A DNA stretch of 36,646 nucleotides from a virus. Lineage: Duplodnaviria > Heunggongvirae > Uroviricota > Caudoviricetes. Shown piece by piece: positions 1,449 to 32,385 of this stretch. A program made the translations under genes and the position numbers. Numbering within the stretch: position 1 is the first letter of the stretch; the number at the start of each line of letters is the position of its first letter. A model generated the notes under the pieces. The model did not search any database and was not told the origin of the DNA. It saw only the letters and a list, made by a program, of their open reading frames with translations. The stretch lies in IMG/VR virus record IMGVR_UViG_2548876701_000024; one strand, 5' to 3'.

Positions 1449-2018
1449 CTATTTAACATACTTGACTGTTAAACTTATAATTTTACCAATTATTTCAATG
1501 TCTTCTATCTTGCATTCGAAGGCTCTGTTTCCACCCTCGACGAAGATTCTTCCACCGGGTAAACGAGTAATGTCACGGATCGTTATTTCGCCATCAATAC
1601 TTATTACCCATTTACCATCACGTATATCATCAAATTCTTTATCACAAATAAATTCAGAATTGTTATCTGTGATGACAAAAGGTTTTTTAAACGTAGAGGG
1701 TAGAAATCCCTTATCAAAAATATAAAAACCGTCTTTCTGCAATGCTCCATCAGACAATAAATATTTTTCTACTTCTATAGTATTTGTATTTGCTGATGCT
1801 TGCTTTGAACCATGCCCTGTTGTTAGCCAATTAAGCGAGGTGCCCGTTTCAAGGGCGCACTGGATTACCCAATCTGCTGGAAAAATATCACGCATATAGC
1901 GCGTTGCCATGGTGCTCTTAGAAACACCTAAATGATCACAGAGAGCCTGACGAGTACCGAACCCATATGCTTCAACTAAACGTTCTATGGCTTTCTTACC
2001 GCCGCTATTGAAATCCAC
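1449..2018 (-). CDS. cI: Phage 186 CI-like immunity repressor
   Basis: HTH-like N-terminal region; lysogenic-strand position upstream of int; start placed at in-frame GTG (2016..2018) after GGAGGA, giving 189 aa; the longest ORF would run to 2105 but would cover the predicted pR promoter. Confidence 0.7.
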   Translation of the reverse strand: MDFNSGGKKAIERLVEAYGFGTRQALCDHLGVSKSTMATRYMRDIFPADWVIQCALETGTSLNWLTTGHGSKQASANTNTIEVEKYLLSDGALQKDGFYIFDKGFLPSTFKKPFVITDNNSEFICDKEFDDIRDGKWVISIDGEITIRDITRLPGGRIFVEGGNRAFECKIEDIEIIGKIISLTVKYVK

Positions 2019-2367: not shown

Positions 2368-2431
2368 TAGACGTCTATTTTCGCAATAAGACGCTGAGTT
2401 CGATTTTGCGATAAGTTCGGAGTTGAAAACC

Positions 2432-2941
2432 ATGTTTGATTACCAAGTTTCCAAACATCCACATTTTGATGAAGCCTGTCGTGCATTCGCACTGCGCCAC
2501 AATCTGGTGCAACTGGCAGAACGTGCGGGCATGAATGTGCAGATTCTGCGGAACAAGCTGAACCCAGCTCAACCTCATTTATTAACCGCACCAGAAATCT
2601 GGCTGCTTACCGATCTGACTGAAGATTCAACGTTGGTAGATGGTTTTCTGGCACAGATTCATTGTCTGCCATGTGTACCGATTAATGAGGTAGCAAAAGA
2701 GAAACTGCCACATTACGTCATGAGTGCAACCGCAGAGATCGGGCGTGTTGCTGCAGGTGCGGTATCTGGCGATGTAAACACCAGTGCAGGTCGTCGTGAT
2801 GCTATCAGCAGCATTAACTCTGTAACACGACTGATGGCGCTGGCGGCTGTTTCATTGCAGGCCCGTTTACAGGCTAATCCTGCGATGGCGAGTGCAGTTG
2901 ATACCGTGACTGGCCTCGGTGCTTCATTCGGTTTGCTGTGA
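2432..2941 (+). CDS. cII: CII-like lysogeny establishment activator (186 CII family)
   Basis: Protein begins [19 protein letters not shown], matching my recollection of 186 CII; 169 aa from the ATG at 2432 (the listed ORF begins at an upstream TTG). Confidence 0.8.
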
Positions 2942-4531: not shown

Positions 4532-5385
4532 GCACCATCCTGAAATGGGCGGGTAATAAAACCACCATTATGTCCGAACTGAAAAAATACCTTCCTGCTG
4601 GCACGCGACTGGTTGAACCTTTCGCGGGTTCTTGTGCTGTGATGATGGAGACGGATTACCCCAGCTATCTGGTTGCGGATATTAATCCTGATTTAATCAA
4701 CCTCTATAAAAAGGTTGCTGCTGATTGTGAGGCGTTTATATCTCGTGCCAGAGCTTTATTTGAGGAAGCAAACAGAGAGGTGGCTTATTACAACATAAGG
4801 CAGGAGTTTAATTACTCCACTGAAATTACTGATTTCATGAAAGCGGTATATTTTTTGTACCTCAATCGTCATGGTTACCGTGGGCTATGTCGCTATAACA
4901 AGAGCGGGTATTTCAACATTCCCTACGGTAATTATAAAAATCCGTATTTCCCTGAAAAAGAAATTCGCGCATTTGCAGAGAAAGCCCAGCGGGCAACGTT
5001 TATCTGCGCCAGCTTTGATGAAACGCTGGCGATGTTGAAGGCGGGGGATGTGGTGTATTGCGATCCGCCTTATGACGGTACGTTTTCCGGCTATCACACT
5101 GATGGCTTCACTGAAGATGACCAGTATCACCTGGCATCCGTTCTTGAACATCGATCATCTGAAGGTCATCCGGTCATTGTTTCTAACAGTGACACATCCC
5201 TGATCCGTTCGCTGTATCGCAATTTTACTCACCACTACATCAAGGCAAAACGCAGCATCGGCGTGGCAGCTGGTGAGAGTAAATCTGCAACAGAAATCAT
5301 CGCTGTTTCCGGGCCGCGCTGCTGGGTAGGATTTGAACCTTCGCGTGGCGTGGATTGTTCCGTCGTGTACGGAGTGCGTGCATGA
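4528..5385 (+). CDS. dam: DNA adenine methyltransferase (Dam-like, N6-adenine MTase)
   Basis: DPPY catalytic motif ([10 protein letters not shown]) and N-terminal AdoMet-binding region (LKWAGNK...EPFAGS). Confidence 0.85.
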
Positions 5386-7796
5386 GCCATGCTGATATGA
5401 ACAACTGCAGCGGCTTTAACGAGGTCGCCGCAGCATTCTCATGGAACAGCCCGAAAAAGGCCATTAACCCTTATCTGGACCCGGCGGAAGTTGCGCCGGT
5501 TTCTGCGCTTTCAAACCTGATCACTCTGTACGCTGCCGATAACGAGCAGGAACAACTGCGCCGCGAGGCACTGAGTGATCAGGTCTGGGAGCGTTATTTC
5601 TTTAATGAATCCCGTGATCCTGTCCAGCGCGAAATGGAGCAGGATAAGCTAATTAGCCGGGCAAAGCTGGCGCATGAGCAGCAGCGTTTTAATCCAGACA
5701 TGGCCATTCTGGCGGACGTCAACGCCCAGCCTTCCCATATCAGCAAGCCGCTGATGCAACGTATTAAATACTTCAGCAGCCTGGGCAGGCCAAAGGCTTA
5801 TTCCCGCTATTTGCGTGAGACGATTAAGCCATGCTTGGAACGACTGGAGCATGTACGCGACAGTCAGCTATCCACTTCTTTTCGCTTTATGGCAAGCCAT
5901 GAAGGGCTGGACGGCCTGCTGATCCTGCCTGAAATGAGTCAGGATCAGGTGAAACGCCTGTCCACCTTGGTAGCTGCGCATATGAGCATGTGCCTTGATA
6001 CAGCTTGTGGCGATTTGTATGCCACCGATGATGTTACGCCAGAAGAAATCCGCAAGACATGGGAAAAGGTGGCAGCGGAAACCCTGCGTCTGGATGTTAT
6101 CCCGCCTGCGTTTGAGCAACTCCGTCGGAAAAGAAACCGCCGTAAACCCGTGCCTTATGAACTCATTCCGGGTTCGCTGGCGCGTATGTTATGCGCCGAC
6201 TGGTGGTATCGGAAATTATGGAAGATGCGTTGCGAATGGCGGGAAGAGCAGTTGCGTGCTGTTTGCCTGGTCAGCAAAAAAGCATCTCCCTATGTCAGCT
6301 ATGAAGCCGTGATGCATAAACGTGAGCAGCGCCGTAAGTCGCTGGAGTTTTTCCGTTCTCATGAACTGGTGAACGAAGACGGCGACACGCTGGATATGGA
6401 AGACGTGGTAAACGCCAGCAGCAGCAACCCTGCGCATCGCCGCAATGAGATGATGGCCTGTGTTAAAGGTCTGGAGCTTATCGCGGAAATGCGTGGTGAC
6501 TGCGCCGTTTTCTACACCATCACCTGTCCGTCACGTTTCCATTCCACGCTAAATAACGGCAGGCCCAACCCGACCTGGACAAATGCGACGGTAAGACAAA
6601 GCAGTGATTATCTGGTCGGTATGTTTGCTGCATTTCGTAAGGCGATGCACAAAGCCGGATTACGCTGGTATGGCGTGCGGGTGGCTGAGCCGCATCATGA
6701 CGGTACAGTTCACTGGCACCTGTTGTGTTTTATGCGCAAAAAAGATCGCCGCGCCATTACTGCTTTGTTGCGTAAGTTTGCCATTCGTGAAGACCGCGAG
6801 GAGCTGGGTAATAACACGGAACCACGCTTTAAGTCTGAGCTGATAAACCCGCGCAAAGGTACGCCAACAAGCTACATCGCGAAATACATCAGTAAGAACA
6901 TTGACGGGCGTGGTCTGGCTGGCGAGATCAGCAAGGAAACGGGTAAATCCCTGCGTGATAACGCCGAATACGTTAATGCCTGGGCGTCTCTGCATCGTGT
7001 TCAGCAATTCCGCTTCTTTGGCATTCCGGGGCGTCAGGCTTACCGTGAACTGCGATTGCTGGCTGGTCAGGCGGCAAGGCAACAGGGGGACAAAAAAGCA
7101 GGTGCGCCGGTACTGGATAACCCGCGCCTTGATGCCATCCTGGCTGCCGCTGATGCTGGCTGTTTTGCCACCTACATCATGAAGCAGGGCGGCGTACTGG
7201 TTCCCCGCAAATATCACCTCATCAGAACCGCTTATGAAATCAACGAAGAGCCGACCGCCTATGGCGATCACGGTATTCGTGTTTATGGCATCTGGTCACC
7301 CATTGCAGAGGGCAAGATCTGCACTCATGCGGTGAAGTGGAAAATGGTTCGTAAGGCCGTTGACATTCAGGAGGCGGCAGCCGACCAGGGCGCTTGCGCC
7401 CCTTGGACTCGTGGCAATAACTGTCCCCTTGCTGAAAATTTGTACCAACAAGGGAAAGACAAATCAGCTGATGGGGATACCAGAACGGATATCACCCGTA
7501 TGGATGACAAGGAGTTGCACGATTACCTGCACAGTATGAACAAAAAAGAGCGCCGGGAACTGGCTGTAAGGTTACGCCTGGTGAAACCGAAACGGCGTAG
7601 AGACTACAAACAGCGAATTACAGACCATCAACGACAGCAGCTCGTCTATGAACTGAAGTCCAGAGGATTTGATGGCAGCGAGAAAGAGGTCGATTTACTC
7701 CTTCGCGGCGGCAGCATTCCGTCAGGAGCAGGCCTGCGTATCTTCTATCGGAACCAGCGTTTGCAGGAAGATGATAAGTGGCGGAACCTGTATTAA
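5382..7796 (+). CDS. A: Replication initiation endonuclease gpA (rolling-circle, P2 A family)
   Basis: ~800-aa protein in the canonical position after the early operon; start ATG overlaps dam stop (ATGA); fits P2 gpA in size and placement. Confidence 0.85.
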
Positions 7797-7890
7797 TTAC
7801 GCGGGTTAACAATTCGTGCTCTTAATAATACCAGGCATATCAGGCTGATGAACGTAAAAAAACGTTTTACATCAGTAAGATTATTATATG

Positions 7891-7906
7891 CTGTAAATAT
7901 AAACAG
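7891..7906. promoter_or_regulatory. LexA (SOS) box CTGTAAATATAAACAG
   Basis: Perfect CTGT-N8-ACAG SOS-box consensus read directly from sequence, immediately upstream of the tum-like ORFs. Confidence 0.7.
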
Positions 7907-7949
7907 TGGTTATGCATGCAGTATTGCTTGTGGTGTCATAGGAGGAAAG

Positions 7950-8138
7950 ATGCAGGACTATTTTTTGGAGTCTTTGAAGCTCCAGCGCATTGATTTTTTT
8001 CTTAAGCTTGTAGCGGCTAGTGAGTGTAGTGATGAAGAGAAGGGGCTGGCCCTGCAGTGGGTTTCTGAACTAACAGATGAACTCATAGCAAAAATCAGAA
8101 GCCACGAATACAACCGCTCAATGGATGTCATCAGCTGA
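7950..8138 (+). CDS. Small protein, possible N-terminal part of Tum-like antirepressor
   Basis: ATG with AGGAGG Shine-Dalgarno just downstream of the LexA box; the longer listed ORF (from 7848) would span the LexA box and promoter. Confidence 0.5.
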   Translation: MQDYFLESLKLQRIDFFLKLVAASECSDEEKGLALQWVSELTDELIAKIRSHEYNRSMDVIS

Positions 8139-8148
8139 GGGGACTTTT

Positions 8149-8382
8149 ATGCGCATTGAAATAATGATCGATAAAGAGCAGAAGATTAGCCAGTCTACCT
8201 TGGACGCCCTTGAATCCGAGCTTTACCGCAATCTGCGCCCCCTGTATCCCAAAACGGTAATTCGTATCCGTAAAGGTAGCTCTAACGGTGTGGAACTAAC
8301 CGGATTGCAACTGGACGAAGAAAGAAAACAAGTGATGAAAATTATGCAGAAGGTGTGGGAAGACGACAGCTGGCTGCATTAA
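8149..8382 (+). CDS. DinI-family protein (Tum C-terminal-like, SOS-inducible)
   Basis: Begins MRIEIMIDK and ends ...KVWEDDSWLH, paralleling E. coli DinI (MRIEVTIAK...ETWESADDWF); under the LexA box. Confidence 0.75.
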   Translation: MRIEIMIDKEQKISQSTLDALESELYRNLRPLYPKTVIRIRKGSSNGVELTGLQLDEERKQVMKIMQKVWEDDSWLH

Positions 8383-8652
8383 GAAACGTTGCTGGCGTCT
8401 GAACTTGCTTCTGGCGTCAGCAAGGTTGAACAACGAGCTATGCGTGGCGTTAGTGTCAATTTGTTACCTTAACCACTATATATGCCAGGAAATTAACAGT
8501 TCTTAAGAAACCGCTTGCATGATCGAGCGCATTGAACTTAAGTTTAAGTAACGAAATCAACAGATGATATTGTTGTCTAAATTTTAAAGATAATCTGTTG
8601 AGGTTGTAGGCGTCGGAGTGTAGACTTCCGCGCCATGTGAAAAGGGGGAGTT

Positions 8653-8868
8653 ATGTCAAGCATCGCCGCATTTAGCCTGGGTAACCCAGTTGAACGTCTG
8701 GCAAGGGTTCTTAAAGAGAACCAGGACAAACTCAATCTTAGTAAAGATGGTTTTGTGTCCGTAGACTTGTCTAACAAAAGAGCAATGGATGCCATCAAGG
8801 CACAGATGGATAAGCTTGAAGGCATCAAAACGAGCACTGTAAAAGAGAAAACTAATAGAACCAGATAA
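8653..8868 (+). CDS. Hypothetical small hydrophilic protein (71 aa), first gene of a two-gene cargo operon
   Basis: ATG with AAGGGGGAG Shine-Dalgarno; stop overlaps start of next gene (TAATG). Confidence 0.55.
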   Translation: MSSIAAFSLGNPVERLARVLKENQDKLNLSKDGFVSVDLSNKRAMDAIKAQMDKLEGIKTSTVKEKTNRTR

Positions 8869-9710
8869 TGGCAACATTACTTTTAGCAGTGATTTTGGTT
8901 AGTGGTTTTATTTATGTAAACCTATCACTTTCAACAAGATACCGATATAAGCGTTCCAACGGCTGGGACGCTTATTTTTTTGTGGCTGCCTGGGGTATCG
9001 TTTTTTTTCTCCTTGGCGGTTTTTTCACCTTTATTTTGAACGTCAGCGGAGGGTTTCGTTGGCTGGCTAATGCCTTGAATCTAACACCTGACAGTTTTAA
9101 TGGCATGTTGTCTTCATCGAAAGACAAACTTCAAAGAATAAATGAAATCAAACAGATAGCATGGGTTATGATTTCAATTGTCCTCGCTGCGATTTCAGGT
9201 TTTGGAAATAAGTTACGCACATCACGTGGAGATCGTCGCTGGGATGCCTTAGCTAAAGCTGTGGGTAATAACGCTTTCGAATCATTACTCATGGAAGCGT
9301 CCGCAAGACAGTTTCCGATCATAGCAACTCTGTCGTCTCGCAAAATCTATGTTGGTCTTGTTACTTGTCCGGCGTTAGAAAACGGGCTTTCAGAACACCT
9401 TGAACTTCTCCCGATGTTAAGCGGATATCGGGATAAAGATGATCTAACGATTAGTATCACGACTAACTATCACCAACATTATCTTGATAGTGGTGTGATA
9501 AGTGGAATGTCTCGGCTTAATATCGAAGATTTCCGTGTGCTCATACCAAAAGATGAGGTTGAAACAATTTCGTTTTTTGATACTGAGACATATAACAAAT
9601 TTAAAGAAAATGAAGCCAGGGATAGAAAGAGCTGTCGAAAGATTGGTAGTAAAAGTGCATCTTCGCGCAGCAAGCGTGCAGCAGATGCTGAGTCAAATGA
9701 TCGTGCATGA
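8868..9710 (+). CDS. Hypothetical membrane protein (280 aa), three predicted N-terminal TM helices plus soluble C-terminal domain
   Basis: Hydrophobic stretches at about residues 3-20, 35-57 and 96-112; translationally coupled to the upstream ORF; in the gpA-to-cos variable region. Confidence 0.65.
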   Translation: MATLLLAVILVSGFIYVNLSLSTRYRYKRSNGWDAYFFVAAWGIVFFLLGGFFTFILNVSGGFRWLANALNLTPDSFNGMLSSSKDKLQRINEIKQIAWVMISIVLAAISGFGNKLRTSRGDRRWDALAKAVGNNAFESLLMEASARQFPIIATLSSRKIYVGLVTCPALENGLSEHLELLPMLSGYRDKDDLTISITTNYHQHYLDSGVISGMSRLNIEDFRVLIPKDEVETISFFDTETYNKFKENEARDRKSCRKIGSKSASSRSKRAADAESNDRA

Positions 9711-9758
9711 CTATGCTGCATGAGATCGCATGATCGTTTGAGGATCGTTTTTGCTAAG

Positions 9759-9783
9759 GCCCGCCAGAACTGGCGGGCTTTTG
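9759..9783 (+). terminator. Rho-independent terminator
   Basis: GCCCGCCA/TGGCGGGC 8-bp GC stem, 4-nt loop, followed by TTTT. Confidence 0.6.
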
Positions 9784-9827
9784 CGTAGATCATGCACCTG
9801 CATGAAAACTACTACATAAAGTGGGCA

Positions 9828-9846
9828 GGCGTGGCGGGGATACGAG
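9828..9846. other. cos-like cohesive-end site (GGCGTGGCGGGGATACGAG)
   Basis: Close match to the P2 cohesive-end sequence as I recall it (GGCGAGGCGGGGAAAGCAC), with a following GCGCGCTG at the same offset as in P2. Confidence 0.5.
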
Positions 9847-10050
9847 CGCGCGCTGCTATATTGCGTAGAGCCTTTACGTAAGCATTAGTAATGTTGACTC
9901 AGATAGAAAACGAATCGAACATTGAACGCTATTAAATGAATAAATGTGTGAAAGAAGAAACTACTATCAATTGCGTTCTCCTGTTTGAAAAGGTTAAAAT
10001 TTAAAAAATTAAAATTTCATCCTGACAGATTAATTTAAAAGGGCATTCAT

Positions 10051-11346
10051 ATGAATGAAGAATTTCAAAAAACGATTAACTCATTATATAGCTTAAAAAA
10101 AGCTGTTGAAAAAGTGGCTACTGACGAAACTAACCTTTCGGATGTGAAAGGTGTTAAAGCTCCTGCTTTATATCCTGTTGATTTTCTAGATATGATTGGT
10201 TTTATAATAAGAAAAATAGAAAAATATGGTGAAGTGGAATTAACGGATGATGAGATTTCTGAACTGAGTTTTTTACCGATTAGAATTGATAATATTAAAG
10301 AAAATATAGTTCCACATCTCTTTGGAAATAACTCGTCTGATGCTATTTCATCATTTGTTGAAACTATTGCGTTTATTACTCAGTATTTAGATGACATTTT
10401 CTCTTTAGAACGACTGGATAATGCTAATCTTCTGCCGAGAAATATGACAAGAAAAATAAAAAGCATGGAGGCTAGGTTAAATAAAGCAGCCCCTGATATA
10501 GAATCATTGGAAAATAAGATAAATAAAATAAATGATGCTCATGTTGCGGCTGAAAACATTCCTATCGATTTGGAGGAATTACGCTCTTATAATAAGGAAG
10601 CTATGGAGTTAAAAGAAAAGATTAATAAATCAATGTTTAATCTTAGTGTCTTAGAAGAAAAAGGACGTGATATTTTAGATAAAATGACACAACAAAATGT
10701 CGAAGCAGCAAAATATCTCGAAATGTGTGAGCAGGCTATTAGAGCATCGACATCTAAAGGTTTAGCCGGTGCTTTTGAAATCAAGGCTAATAAATTAAAT
10801 AATAGTATCCAACTATGGGTTTTGGGATTGGCAAGTGCACTGGCGACGGGGGGATACGTGGGTTTTGAAAGGCTCAAGGTTTTATCTGATGTGCTAAACA
10901 ATGCAAATCCAAATGCAGTAGTTATTGTTACTCAGTTACTTCTTTCAGTGTTCAGTATAGGAGCTCCGTTATGGTTTGCATGGCTCTCTACAAAACAAAT
11001 AAATCAAAGATTTAAATTGGCAGAGGATTATGCTTTTAAGGCTTCAGTAGCGAAGGCTTACGAAGGCTATCGAAATGAAGCAAGTAAGGTATCTAATGGA
11101 GAATTTGAAAGGCGTTTATTTGATTCGGCATTGAGTCGTCTCGAAGAAGCACCTTTGCGCTTTGTGAAGGATGATGACCATGCAACCCCTTGGAATGAGT
11201 TGTTAAATTCGAAAGCATTCAATAAGTTCCTTGACGCTTCTGTTGAAAATGTGAATTTTGTTAAAGGGATTATTAGCAAGAAAACAGGTGGGGCGAGAAT
11301 GGCTAGTAATGATTCGGCTATTATTCCAGAAAAAAAAGTTGAATGA
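10051..11346 (+). CDS. Hypothetical 431-aa protein; coiled-coil-rich N-terminal region, two predicted TM helices (about residues 253-272 and 288-311), C-terminal soluble domain
   Basis: Long ORF in a strongly AT-rich segment unlike the phage backbone; hydrophobic helices evident in the translation; between cos and portal gene Q. Confidence 0.7.
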   Translation: MNEEFQKTINSLYSLKKAVEKVATDETNLSDVKGVKAPALYPVDFLDMIGFIIRKIEKYGEVELTDDEISELSFLPIRIDNIKENIVPHLFGNNSSDAISSFVETIAFITQYLDDIFSLERLDNANLLPRNMTRKIKSMEARLNKAAPDIESLENKINKINDAHVAAENIPIDLEELRSYNKEAMELKEKINKSMFNLSVLEEKGRDILDKMTQQNVEAAKYLEMCEQAIRASTSKGLAGAFEIKANKLNNSIQLWVLGLASALATGGYVGFERLKVLSDVLNNANPNAVVIVTQLLLSVFSIGAPLWFAWLSTKQINQRFKLAEDYAFKASVAKAYEGYRNEASKVSNGEFERRLFDSALSRLEEAPLRFVKDDDHATPWNELLNSKAFNKFLDASVENVNFVKGIISKKTGGARMASNDSAIIPEKKVE

Positions 11347-31903: not shown

Positions 31904-32385
31904 TGATGGTGCTGGGATTGTACGTGTTTATGCTGCGCACCGTGCCGTATCAGGAACTGCAGTATCAGCGCAGCTGGCGACATGCGGCTAACAGCCGGGT
32001 AAATCGTCGTCCGTCCACGCAGTTTCTGGGACCGGACAACGACATGCTGACGCTTTCCGGTGTTCTTATGCCGGAGATAACAGGCGGCAGGCTGTCGTTG
32101 CTGGCACTGGAGCAGATGGCAGAACAGGGGAAAGCATGGCCTCTGATTGAAGGCAGCGGCACGATTTACGGCATGTATGTGATTGAGGGACTGAATCAGA
32201 CTAAAACGGAGTTTTTCCGCGACGGTATGCCGCGCCGGATTGAGTTCACCCTGTCGCTCAAACGGGTGGATGAATCCCTGTCCGATATGTTCGGTGATCT
32301 CAGTGCGCAGTTGAATAATCTGCAGGGAACGGCAACATCAGCCTTAAGCGATATCAGTAAAACGGTGGGAGGGCTTCTGTCGTGA
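31900..32385 (+). CDS. U: Tail protein gpU
   Basis: Synteny and size. Confidence 0.85.
   Translation: MMMVLGLYVFMLRTVPYQELQYQRSWRHAANSRVNRRPSTQFLGPDNDMLTLSGVLMPEITGGRLSLLALEQMAEQGKAWPLIEGSGTIYGMYVIEGLNQTKTEFFRDGMPRRIEFTLSLKRVDESLSDMFGDLSAQLNNLQGTATSALSDISKTVGGLLS

Follow-up and report, generated by a model that had tools for sequence, protein, structure and literature searches.

The region described here occupies positions 7891-8382 of a 36,646-nucleotide (nt) stretch of DNA, hereafter called the window, which represents a P2/186-like (Peduoviridae) prophage (IMG/VR record IMGVR_UViG_2548876701_000024). A LexA box, an open reading frame (ORF) of 62 amino acids (aa; ORF1) and a DinI-family ORF of 77 aa (ORF2) had been described at this place from the sequence alone (the original prediction), and all three are present there (Table 1). 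The gene order is a homologue of the replication gene gpA (5355-7796), ORF1, ORF2, a set of cargo genes and the portal gene, the last on the minus strand from 11504. In phages and prophages 186, PSP3, Fels-2, SopEPhi and DuoHS, too, the module comes directly after the replication gene A and has the same orientation as this gene.

The region very probably represents the SOS operon of a P2-like (Peduoviridae) prophage of the Fels-2/DuoHS type, that is, a split, two-gene form of the tum gene of phage 186 with the tumA/tumB arrangement of PSP3; ORF1 and ORF2 are called tumA and tumB below. A 186-type induction module controlled by LexA and Tum had been proposed, and Tum homology in both ORFs together with a 186-type CI and a 186-type CII bears this out; the gene at 2423-2941, previously called CII-like, does match Pfam Phage_CP76. 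The SOS switch is an already characterized system that has been published in essentially identical form, and it holds no new biology beyond the work on 186, PSP3, Fels-2, SopEPhi and DuoHS. For this prophage, the sequence anatomy, homology and conservation of the region were established here, and the dependence of induction on tumA and on cleavable LexA would carry over from an orthologous locus with 98% (TumA) and 100% (TumB) identity.

Table 1. Position of the tum region features and of the CI and CII genes in the window (SD, Shine-Dalgarno).
Feature	Position	Strand	Basis or remark
-35-like hexamer TTTACA of the tum promoter	7866..7871	+	Invariant in 59 distinct operators; position relative to the LexA box matches the annotated -35 (TTCACA) of 186 p95
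Candidate -10 region, overlapping LexA box 1	7887..7894	+	TATGCT (15-nt spacer) or TGCTGT (17-nt spacer)
Predicted LexA box 1, CTGTAAATATAAACAG	7891..7906	+	Arms kept in 78/80 viral contigs and about 20 species; spacer varies
Predicted LexA box 2, GTGGTTATGCATGCAG, weaker colicin-type second box	7906..7921	+	Shares one base with box 1; layout conserved
SD AGGAGG of tumA	7940..7945	+	Read from the sequence; AGGAGG(G) conserved in relatives
tumA-like gene, 62 aa, predicted CI antirepressor	7950..8138	+	phrog_698, Tum profile match, DuoHS orthologue
SD-like GAGGGG of tumB	8137..8142	+	Overlaps the tumA TGA stop; relatives have GAGGTGA or AAGGGGA there
tumB, 77-aa DinI-family protein	8149..8382	+	Pfam DinI, phrog_189, identity to TumB and Tum
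Stem-loop directly 3' of tumB	8385..8427	+	RNA fold -25.9 kcal/mol, z -2.3
186-type CI immunity repressor, presumed TumA target	1449..2018	-	Pfam Phage_CI_repr (3e-31) and Phage_CI_C (5e-29)
186-type CII lysogeny-establishment activator	2423..2941	+	Pfam Phage_CP76 (5e-42)

The predicted tandem LexA operator

The sequence CTGTAAATATAAACAG is the sole CTGT-N8-ACAG in the window. Taken alone, this match is weak evidence, as 0.62 such motifs are expected per window by chance and at least one was present in 46 of 100 shuffled sequences; with a spacer made up of A and T only, the expected number is 0.06, one mismatch being allowed. The 20-nt LexA consensus is TACTGTATATATATACAGTA, from which the window sequence (TGCTGT...CAGTG) differs by a G at positions 2 and 20. 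The box that had been called perfect is so in its 16-nt core, and not over the full consensus.

Conservation of the operator was assessed with 59 distinct operator sequences out of 98 related loci. No positions in this set are better conserved than the arms of the LexA box and the TTTACA -35 element, and the box is therefore more than a chance match. Conservation was also followed in 80 independent IMG/VR contigs, each with an ORF2 identical to that of the window, a set suited to a test for sequence errors, not to a measure of diversity. CTGT-N8-ACAG was found at a constant distance in 78 of these contigs, with substitutions only within the spacer, and both the box and the TTTACA hexamer are also in place in the loci of about 20 enterobacterial species.

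The original prediction overlooked the double nature of the operator. Positions 7891-7921 hold CTG-N10-CAG followed by GTG-N10-CAG, with one base shared and with A/T-rich spacers; 0.01 matches to the combined pattern, CTG-N10-CAGTG-N10-CAG, are expected per window. The double box occupies the same position in Fels-2, SopEPhi, DuoHS, 813R9, 76 of the 80 viral contigs and 15 species loci. It was found at the tum operator of none of 80 186-type loci, and neither in PSP3 nor in the Yersinia phage locus. The right arm of box 2 (ACAG) is kept among close relatives and the spacer of this box varies freely; window positions 7914-7915 fall within this variable spacer. By its layout, the predicted tandem LexA operator is of the colicin type, with dual overlapping SOS boxes. 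Colicin genes carry two overlapping SOS boxes (PMC2994835), in the layout CTG-N10-CAGTG-N10-CAG; their operators control toxin genes and not an antirepressor. Plasmid pCKO3 has this layout as well, 5' of a gene for a colicin-like bacteriocin. The pattern recurs in the window at 32092-32122 (minus strand), a match that is taken to be due to chance and not a LexA site, because its spacers are G+C-rich and it lies within the tail genes.

The annotated -10 of the 186 promoter p95, TACTGT, is the left arm of the 186 LexA site. The tum promoter, with its -35-like TTTACA, is assigned by analogy with p95, from which we also infer that its -10 overlaps box 1.

tumA, tumB and prophage induction

ORF1 matched the 63-position PHROGs profile phrog_698 ("unknown function") over its full length (expectation value, E, 3e-37), and no Pfam family matched it. 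Its product is 98% identical to that of ECHS_RS04495 of DuoHS, 95% to STM2728 of Fels-2 and 89% to orf10 of SopEPhi; conservation of the protein across genera is 79-98%, and 461 homologues were found. A longer ORF1 of 96 aa, starting with the ATG at 7848, was rejected; this start lies upstream of the promoter and operator, and it is not used by RefSeq in relatives.

A profile of the relatives of ORF1 was searched against 1.84 billion representative proteins and returned 85 family members, nearly all of 50-100 aa. The final TumA profile was made from 38 clean members, all of them homologues of ORF1 itself, and was run against a test set of 1,067 sequences that included 1,064 background ORFs. 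It aligned with residues 5-43 of 186 Tum without gaps (34.5 bits; E 9e-10 in the test set, or 1.6e-3 when rescaled to the 1.8-billion library) and with the 60-aa "tum protein" of a Yersinia phage (38 bits); the best of the background ORFs had an E of 0.5. As judged from these profile matches, ORF1 and the N-terminal half of 186 Tum are homologues. Homology of ORF1 to PSP3 TumA is not claimed. An AlphaFold2 model of TumA shows, with good confidence, a two-helix hairpin (helices 2-23 and 28-61; predicted local distance difference test score, pLDDT, 87.7), and a search of solved structures with the TumA family profile gave no match.

Several other members of the family deserve mention. A subset of the TumA-family proteins (P0146, P0157, P0161, P0175, P0181, P0185, P0187 and P0193) carries a conserved tail of approximately NPQxGG...GGxxLQ, which ORF1 does not have. 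Some sources name a TumA homologue "levan regulatory (domain) protein" (P0021; Klebsiella phage records H35, H37 and H47); no support for this label was found and it looks like a propagated misannotation. In the Yersinia phage vB_YenM_06.16-2 (L005, 2977-3493), small hypothetical ORFs come after the gene of the 60-aa "tum protein", and no adjacent DinI-like gene is annotated, no search having been made for one; from this annotation, TumA may also occur without an adjacent TumB.

ORF2 matched Pfam DinI (PF06183) over profile positions 1-63 of 63 (E 6.6e-23; 81.3 bits, gathering cut-off 24.2), positions 71-148 of the 151-position profile phrog_189, and the E. coli DinI structure 1GHH (E 2.7e-6). 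Its product is identical to the Fels-2 and DuoHS proteins (100% each) and 78% identical to PSP3 TumB. With residues 71-145 of 186 Tum it shares 41% identity (E 3e-24), so that the homology to 186 Tum on which the original prediction turned is found in both ORFs, at the C-terminal half for ORF2 and, through the family profile, at residues 5-43 for ORF1. The ORF2-Tum alignment starts exactly where the 186 record places an internal GTG start, that of a truncated 76-aa Tum annotated as a modulator. By analogy, TumB probably modulates the response as a DinI-type binder of RecA filaments and is not directed at CI.

The following sequence of events is proposed. In a lysogen, LexA bound to the double operator, over the -10 region of the TTTACA promoter, would silence the operon. 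Upon DNA damage RecA would be activated, LexA would undergo self-cleavage and the operon would be transcribed. TumA, a predicted 62-aa helical hairpin, would then bind the 186-type CI and block its binding to DNA, so that the lytic promoter would be derepressed with CI left uncleaved. Translation of the 77-aa TumB would begin independently, at a separate ribosome-binding site that overlaps the stop codon of tumA, and as a DinI homologue TumB would probably bind RecA filaments and tune the SOS signal, with no action on CI. The contact between TumA and CI, the occupancy of both boxes by LexA and the role of TumB are drawn from homology or analogy with the related systems.

The functional evidence comes from DuoHS, a prophage of E. 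coli HS, in which tum was defined as ECHS_RS04495, the 62-aa gene, and removed as a markerless deletion (Phollow paper, Nat Microbiol 2025, PMC12055606). The deletion primers join the ATG of tum to its TGA and keep GGTGACTTTTATGCGCATTG, the start of the DinI gene (PMC12055606). With either the tum deletion or lexA(Ind-), neither lysis nor virions were obtained after addition of mitomycin C (PMC12055606). Induction of SopEPhi has been attributed to SOS-driven expression of Tum, a need for the antirepressor in SOS induction is on record for PSP3 and Fels-2 as well, and inactivation of CI without cleavage is known from biochemistry with 186 Tum (Shearwin 1998, as cited in PMC3121763). By analogy with DuoHS, induction of the prophage in the window is predicted to depend on tumA and on cleavable LexA.

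A number of points weigh against this reading. A scan for consensus sigma-70 promoters and for terminators called neither in the region, and the tum promoter has no consensus -10. Most relatives have TATACTGT in the -10 area, and the window has the rare variant TATGCTGT. Relative to the consensus of the 59 distinct operators, the window carries rare A-to-G changes at 7890 (TACTGT to TGCTGT; 3 of 78 close relatives) and at 7918 (box 2 ACAG to GCAG; 1 of 78), which might affect promoter strength or LexA affinity. At the protein level, BLASTP gave no alignment of ORF1 with either 186 Tum or PSP3 TumA, and the TumA family profile fails to reach PSP3 TumA (E 4.6). As for function, the DuoHS deletion could also reduce translation of tumB through lost coupling, in which case TumB could have a part in induction. 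Direct biochemistry of binding to CI, as far as it is reported through PMC3121763 (Shearwin 1998), concerns only the fused 186 Tum.

The operator variants lead to the view of a module that is intact in its parts and weakened in function, leaving the prophage poorly inducible, non-inducible or leaky. In the -10 area the G at 7890 turns TATACT/TACTGT into TATGCT/TGCTGT, and one substitution in the -10 of the equivalent promoter, that of dinI-gfoA, is enough to abolish induction in Gifsy-1 of strain D23580 (PMC5322425). We regard such a weakening as unlikely: both boxes retain their CTG/CAG cores, the -35 element is intact, as is each ORF with its ribosome-binding site, and TGCTGT is also present in a Buttiauxella locus.

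It is very unlikely that the DinI-like ORF2 is the inducer, with ORF1 as an unrelated leader or a non-functional ORF. The databases could be read in that way, as they annotate ORF2 alone (Pfam DinI; phrog_189, which also contains full-length Tum), and ORF1 is without a Pfam family, has a PHROG of unknown function and is a hypothetical protein in RefSeq. Against this stand the conservation of ORF1 across genera and the number of its homologues, its homology to the N-terminal half of Tum, and the loss of induction upon deletion of the DuoHS ORF1 orthologue alone (PMC12055606). Moreover, antirepressor activity in PSP3 resides in the upstream gene, and deletions of the dinI homologues of the Gifsy prophages had no significant effect on induction (Lemire 2011, PMC3121763).

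Organization of the tum region as two genes

The reading of the region as a tumA/tumB operon also has to account for its two frames. The TGA of tumA and 10 nt separate the two ORFs, which are in different frames (7950 mod 3 = 0, 8149 mod 3 = 1), and 186 Tum is a single protein of 146 aa the halves of which correspond to ORF1 and ORF2. The original prediction had left three explanations standing: a genuine two-gene organization, a frameshift mutation and a sequencing error.

In all of the 80 IMG/VR contigs, a 62-aa ORF is closed by the same stop codon, which lies 10 nt upstream of the ATG of ORF2. The tum region was found in 1,125 of 5,426 complete E. coli genomes, with at least 80% of the region covered in 1,079 of them, and among the matches listed the pair was annotated each time as a hypothetical protein followed by a DinI-like protein. 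The two-ORF layout is also that of Fels-2, SopEPhi (orf10 and orf11) and DuoHS. PSP3 has two annotated genes, tumB and, upstream of it, tumA, which is described as "similar to 5' end 186 tum; UV induction of prophage". The tum genes of Fels-2 and PSP3 have been described as split by a stop codon (Lemire 2011, PMC3121763), with Bunny et al. 2002 as the primary source for Fels-2, as cited by Lemire 2011.

As the TumA sequences of the diverse alignment varied too much for a scan of genome contigs, loci in other species were found through TumB instead. Across about 20 enterobacterial species, the spacer between tumA and tumB is 9-17 nt and relative frames of 0, 1 and 2 were all seen, a variation that fits nothing but an independent translation of ORF2. 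Erwinia and Pantoea prophages have stand-alone genes of about 63 aa (L187, 8798-9032; L190, 8796-9032; L185, 8750-9032), whose products share 59-63% identity with the N-terminal half of 186 Tum, and these are followed by a stop codon, a ribosome-binding site and a separate tumB. When aligned with these loci, 186 tum (L001, 7083-7523) keeps AAGGAGG and a GTG (codon 71) inside its reading frame, and it looks like a fusion of two genes that has retained the former intergenic ribosome-binding site.

The chance that ORF1 and ORF2 are fragments of an approximately 146-aa protein, from a single 186-like tum broken by a frameshift or by a sequencing or assembly error near 8125-8150, is negligible in view of the constant stop and restart in the viral contigs, the 1,079 E. 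coli genomes and the four named phages, the variable spacer and frames among species, the ribosome-binding site and ATG that tumB has of its own, the stand-alone 186-type genes and the sites kept within fused 186 tum, and the induction defect caused by deletion of the 62-aa gene alone in DuoHS (PMC12055606). Of the three explanations, the genuine two-gene organization stands and both the mutation and the error fall. It is the common arrangement, and the fused 186 tum is the exception.

CI, related prophages and the cargo slot

The CI ORF as delimited mechanically (218 aa, GTG start) reaches 2105, and homologues, including DuoHS CI, start at its residue 30; the CI start is probably the GTG at 2018, the mechanical ORF being 29 codons too long. 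The protein is 87% identical to DuoHS CI, 40% to SopEPhi CI and 33% to 186 CI, the last over both domains. A Peptidase_S24 match in CI scored 16.1 bits, under the family cut-off of 23.3. As judged by its domains, the cognate repressor is a 186-type CI, not a P2 C, and is presumably not of the lambda self-cleaving type.

TumA and CI were compared in 22 phylogenetically related loci. Between prophages (CI genes of L004 and L166-L191), TumA varies much less than CI, as in SopEPhi (89% and 40% identity, respectively). Prophages with 79-98% identical TumA proteins have CI C-terminal domains of 23-40% identity, and nearly all of them have 57-82% identity in the CI N-terminal domain, the exception being a Pantoea stewartii locus (32%). 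TumA identity correlated with identity in the N-terminal domain of CI (Spearman 0.70, p 3e-4) and not with that in its C-terminal domain (0.23). A contact of TumA with the DNA-binding domain is suggested by this correlation, which is a lead only, as the loci are kin. We put forward tentatively, and at less than even odds, that TumA recognizes the conserved N-terminal DNA-binding domain of CI, that heteroimmune Fels-2-type prophages could thereby be open to its action in trans, and that the double operator would set a tighter or later SOS threshold than that of 186 and PSP3. If true, this would allow cross-induction between prophages, akin to the crosstalk of the Gifsy antirepressors.

The closest relative of the window locus is found in DuoHS, which shares the gene order after gene A, both Tum proteins (TumB, ECHS_RS04500), the CI, the double LexA box and the -35 element; the window differs by three A-to-G changes in the operator/-10 region and by the cargo 3' of tumB. 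Fels-2 (STM2728 and STM2726.1; 95% and 100% identity) and SopEPhi have the split tum with the same spacing. The identity of SopEPhi CI is unevenly spread, with about 68% in the N-terminal domain and about 27% in the C-terminal domain. PSP3 resembles the window in its named tumA and tumB genes after gene A, with a LexA box 5' of them, and in TumB; it differs in a TumA of 60 aa without detectable similarity to ORF1 by BLASTP or profile, in a single LexA box, in a 3-nt spacer and in a longer CI of 286 aa. Phage 186 shares the LexA-controlled promoter after gene A, with a -10 overlapping the box, the correspondence of the N-terminal part of Tum to ORF1 and of its DinI-like C-terminal part to ORF2, and the 186-type CI. 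It differs in the fused 146-aa frame, with annotated internal starts that include the GTG at codon 71, in a single LexA box, and in orf97 as the next gene. The dinI-gfoA/gftA operons of Gifsy-1, -2 and -3 are likewise repressed by LexA and combine a DinI homologue with a small antirepressor (PMC3121763); unlike in the window, dinI comes first and the antirepressors are unrelated in sequence. A literature search on TumA/TumB returned unrelated papers only.

The stem-loop at 8385-8427 is a possible partial terminator or RNA-stabilizing hairpin. No U-run follows it and the terminator scan made no call there; the partial terminator t95a of 186 lies at the equivalent place. Three cargo ORFs are located between tumB and the portal gene (8653-11346), of 71 aa (phrog_9843), 280 aa (phrog_3630) and 431 aa. 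The 280-aa product is probably a membrane protein, and Pfam and PADLOC gave no assignment for any of the three. The gene content of this slot differs in DuoHS, SopEPhi, Fels-2, 813R9 and 186 (orf97). Since tumB is followed merely by a hairpin without a U-run, the cargo ORFs could be read through from the SOS promoter.

The analysis is of value for annotation: the 62-aa gene is still a "hypothetical protein" in RefSeq, is of "unknown function" in PHROGs and bears the name "levan regulatory protein" in some records, and it is the predicted antirepressor that would give SOS inducibility to a very common type of prophage, about one fifth of complete E. coli genomes having the region. The tumA/tumB pair distinguishes inducible prophages of the 186/Fels-2 type from non-inducible ones of the P2 type, a distinction that is useful for predicting phage release under antibiotics or inflammation.

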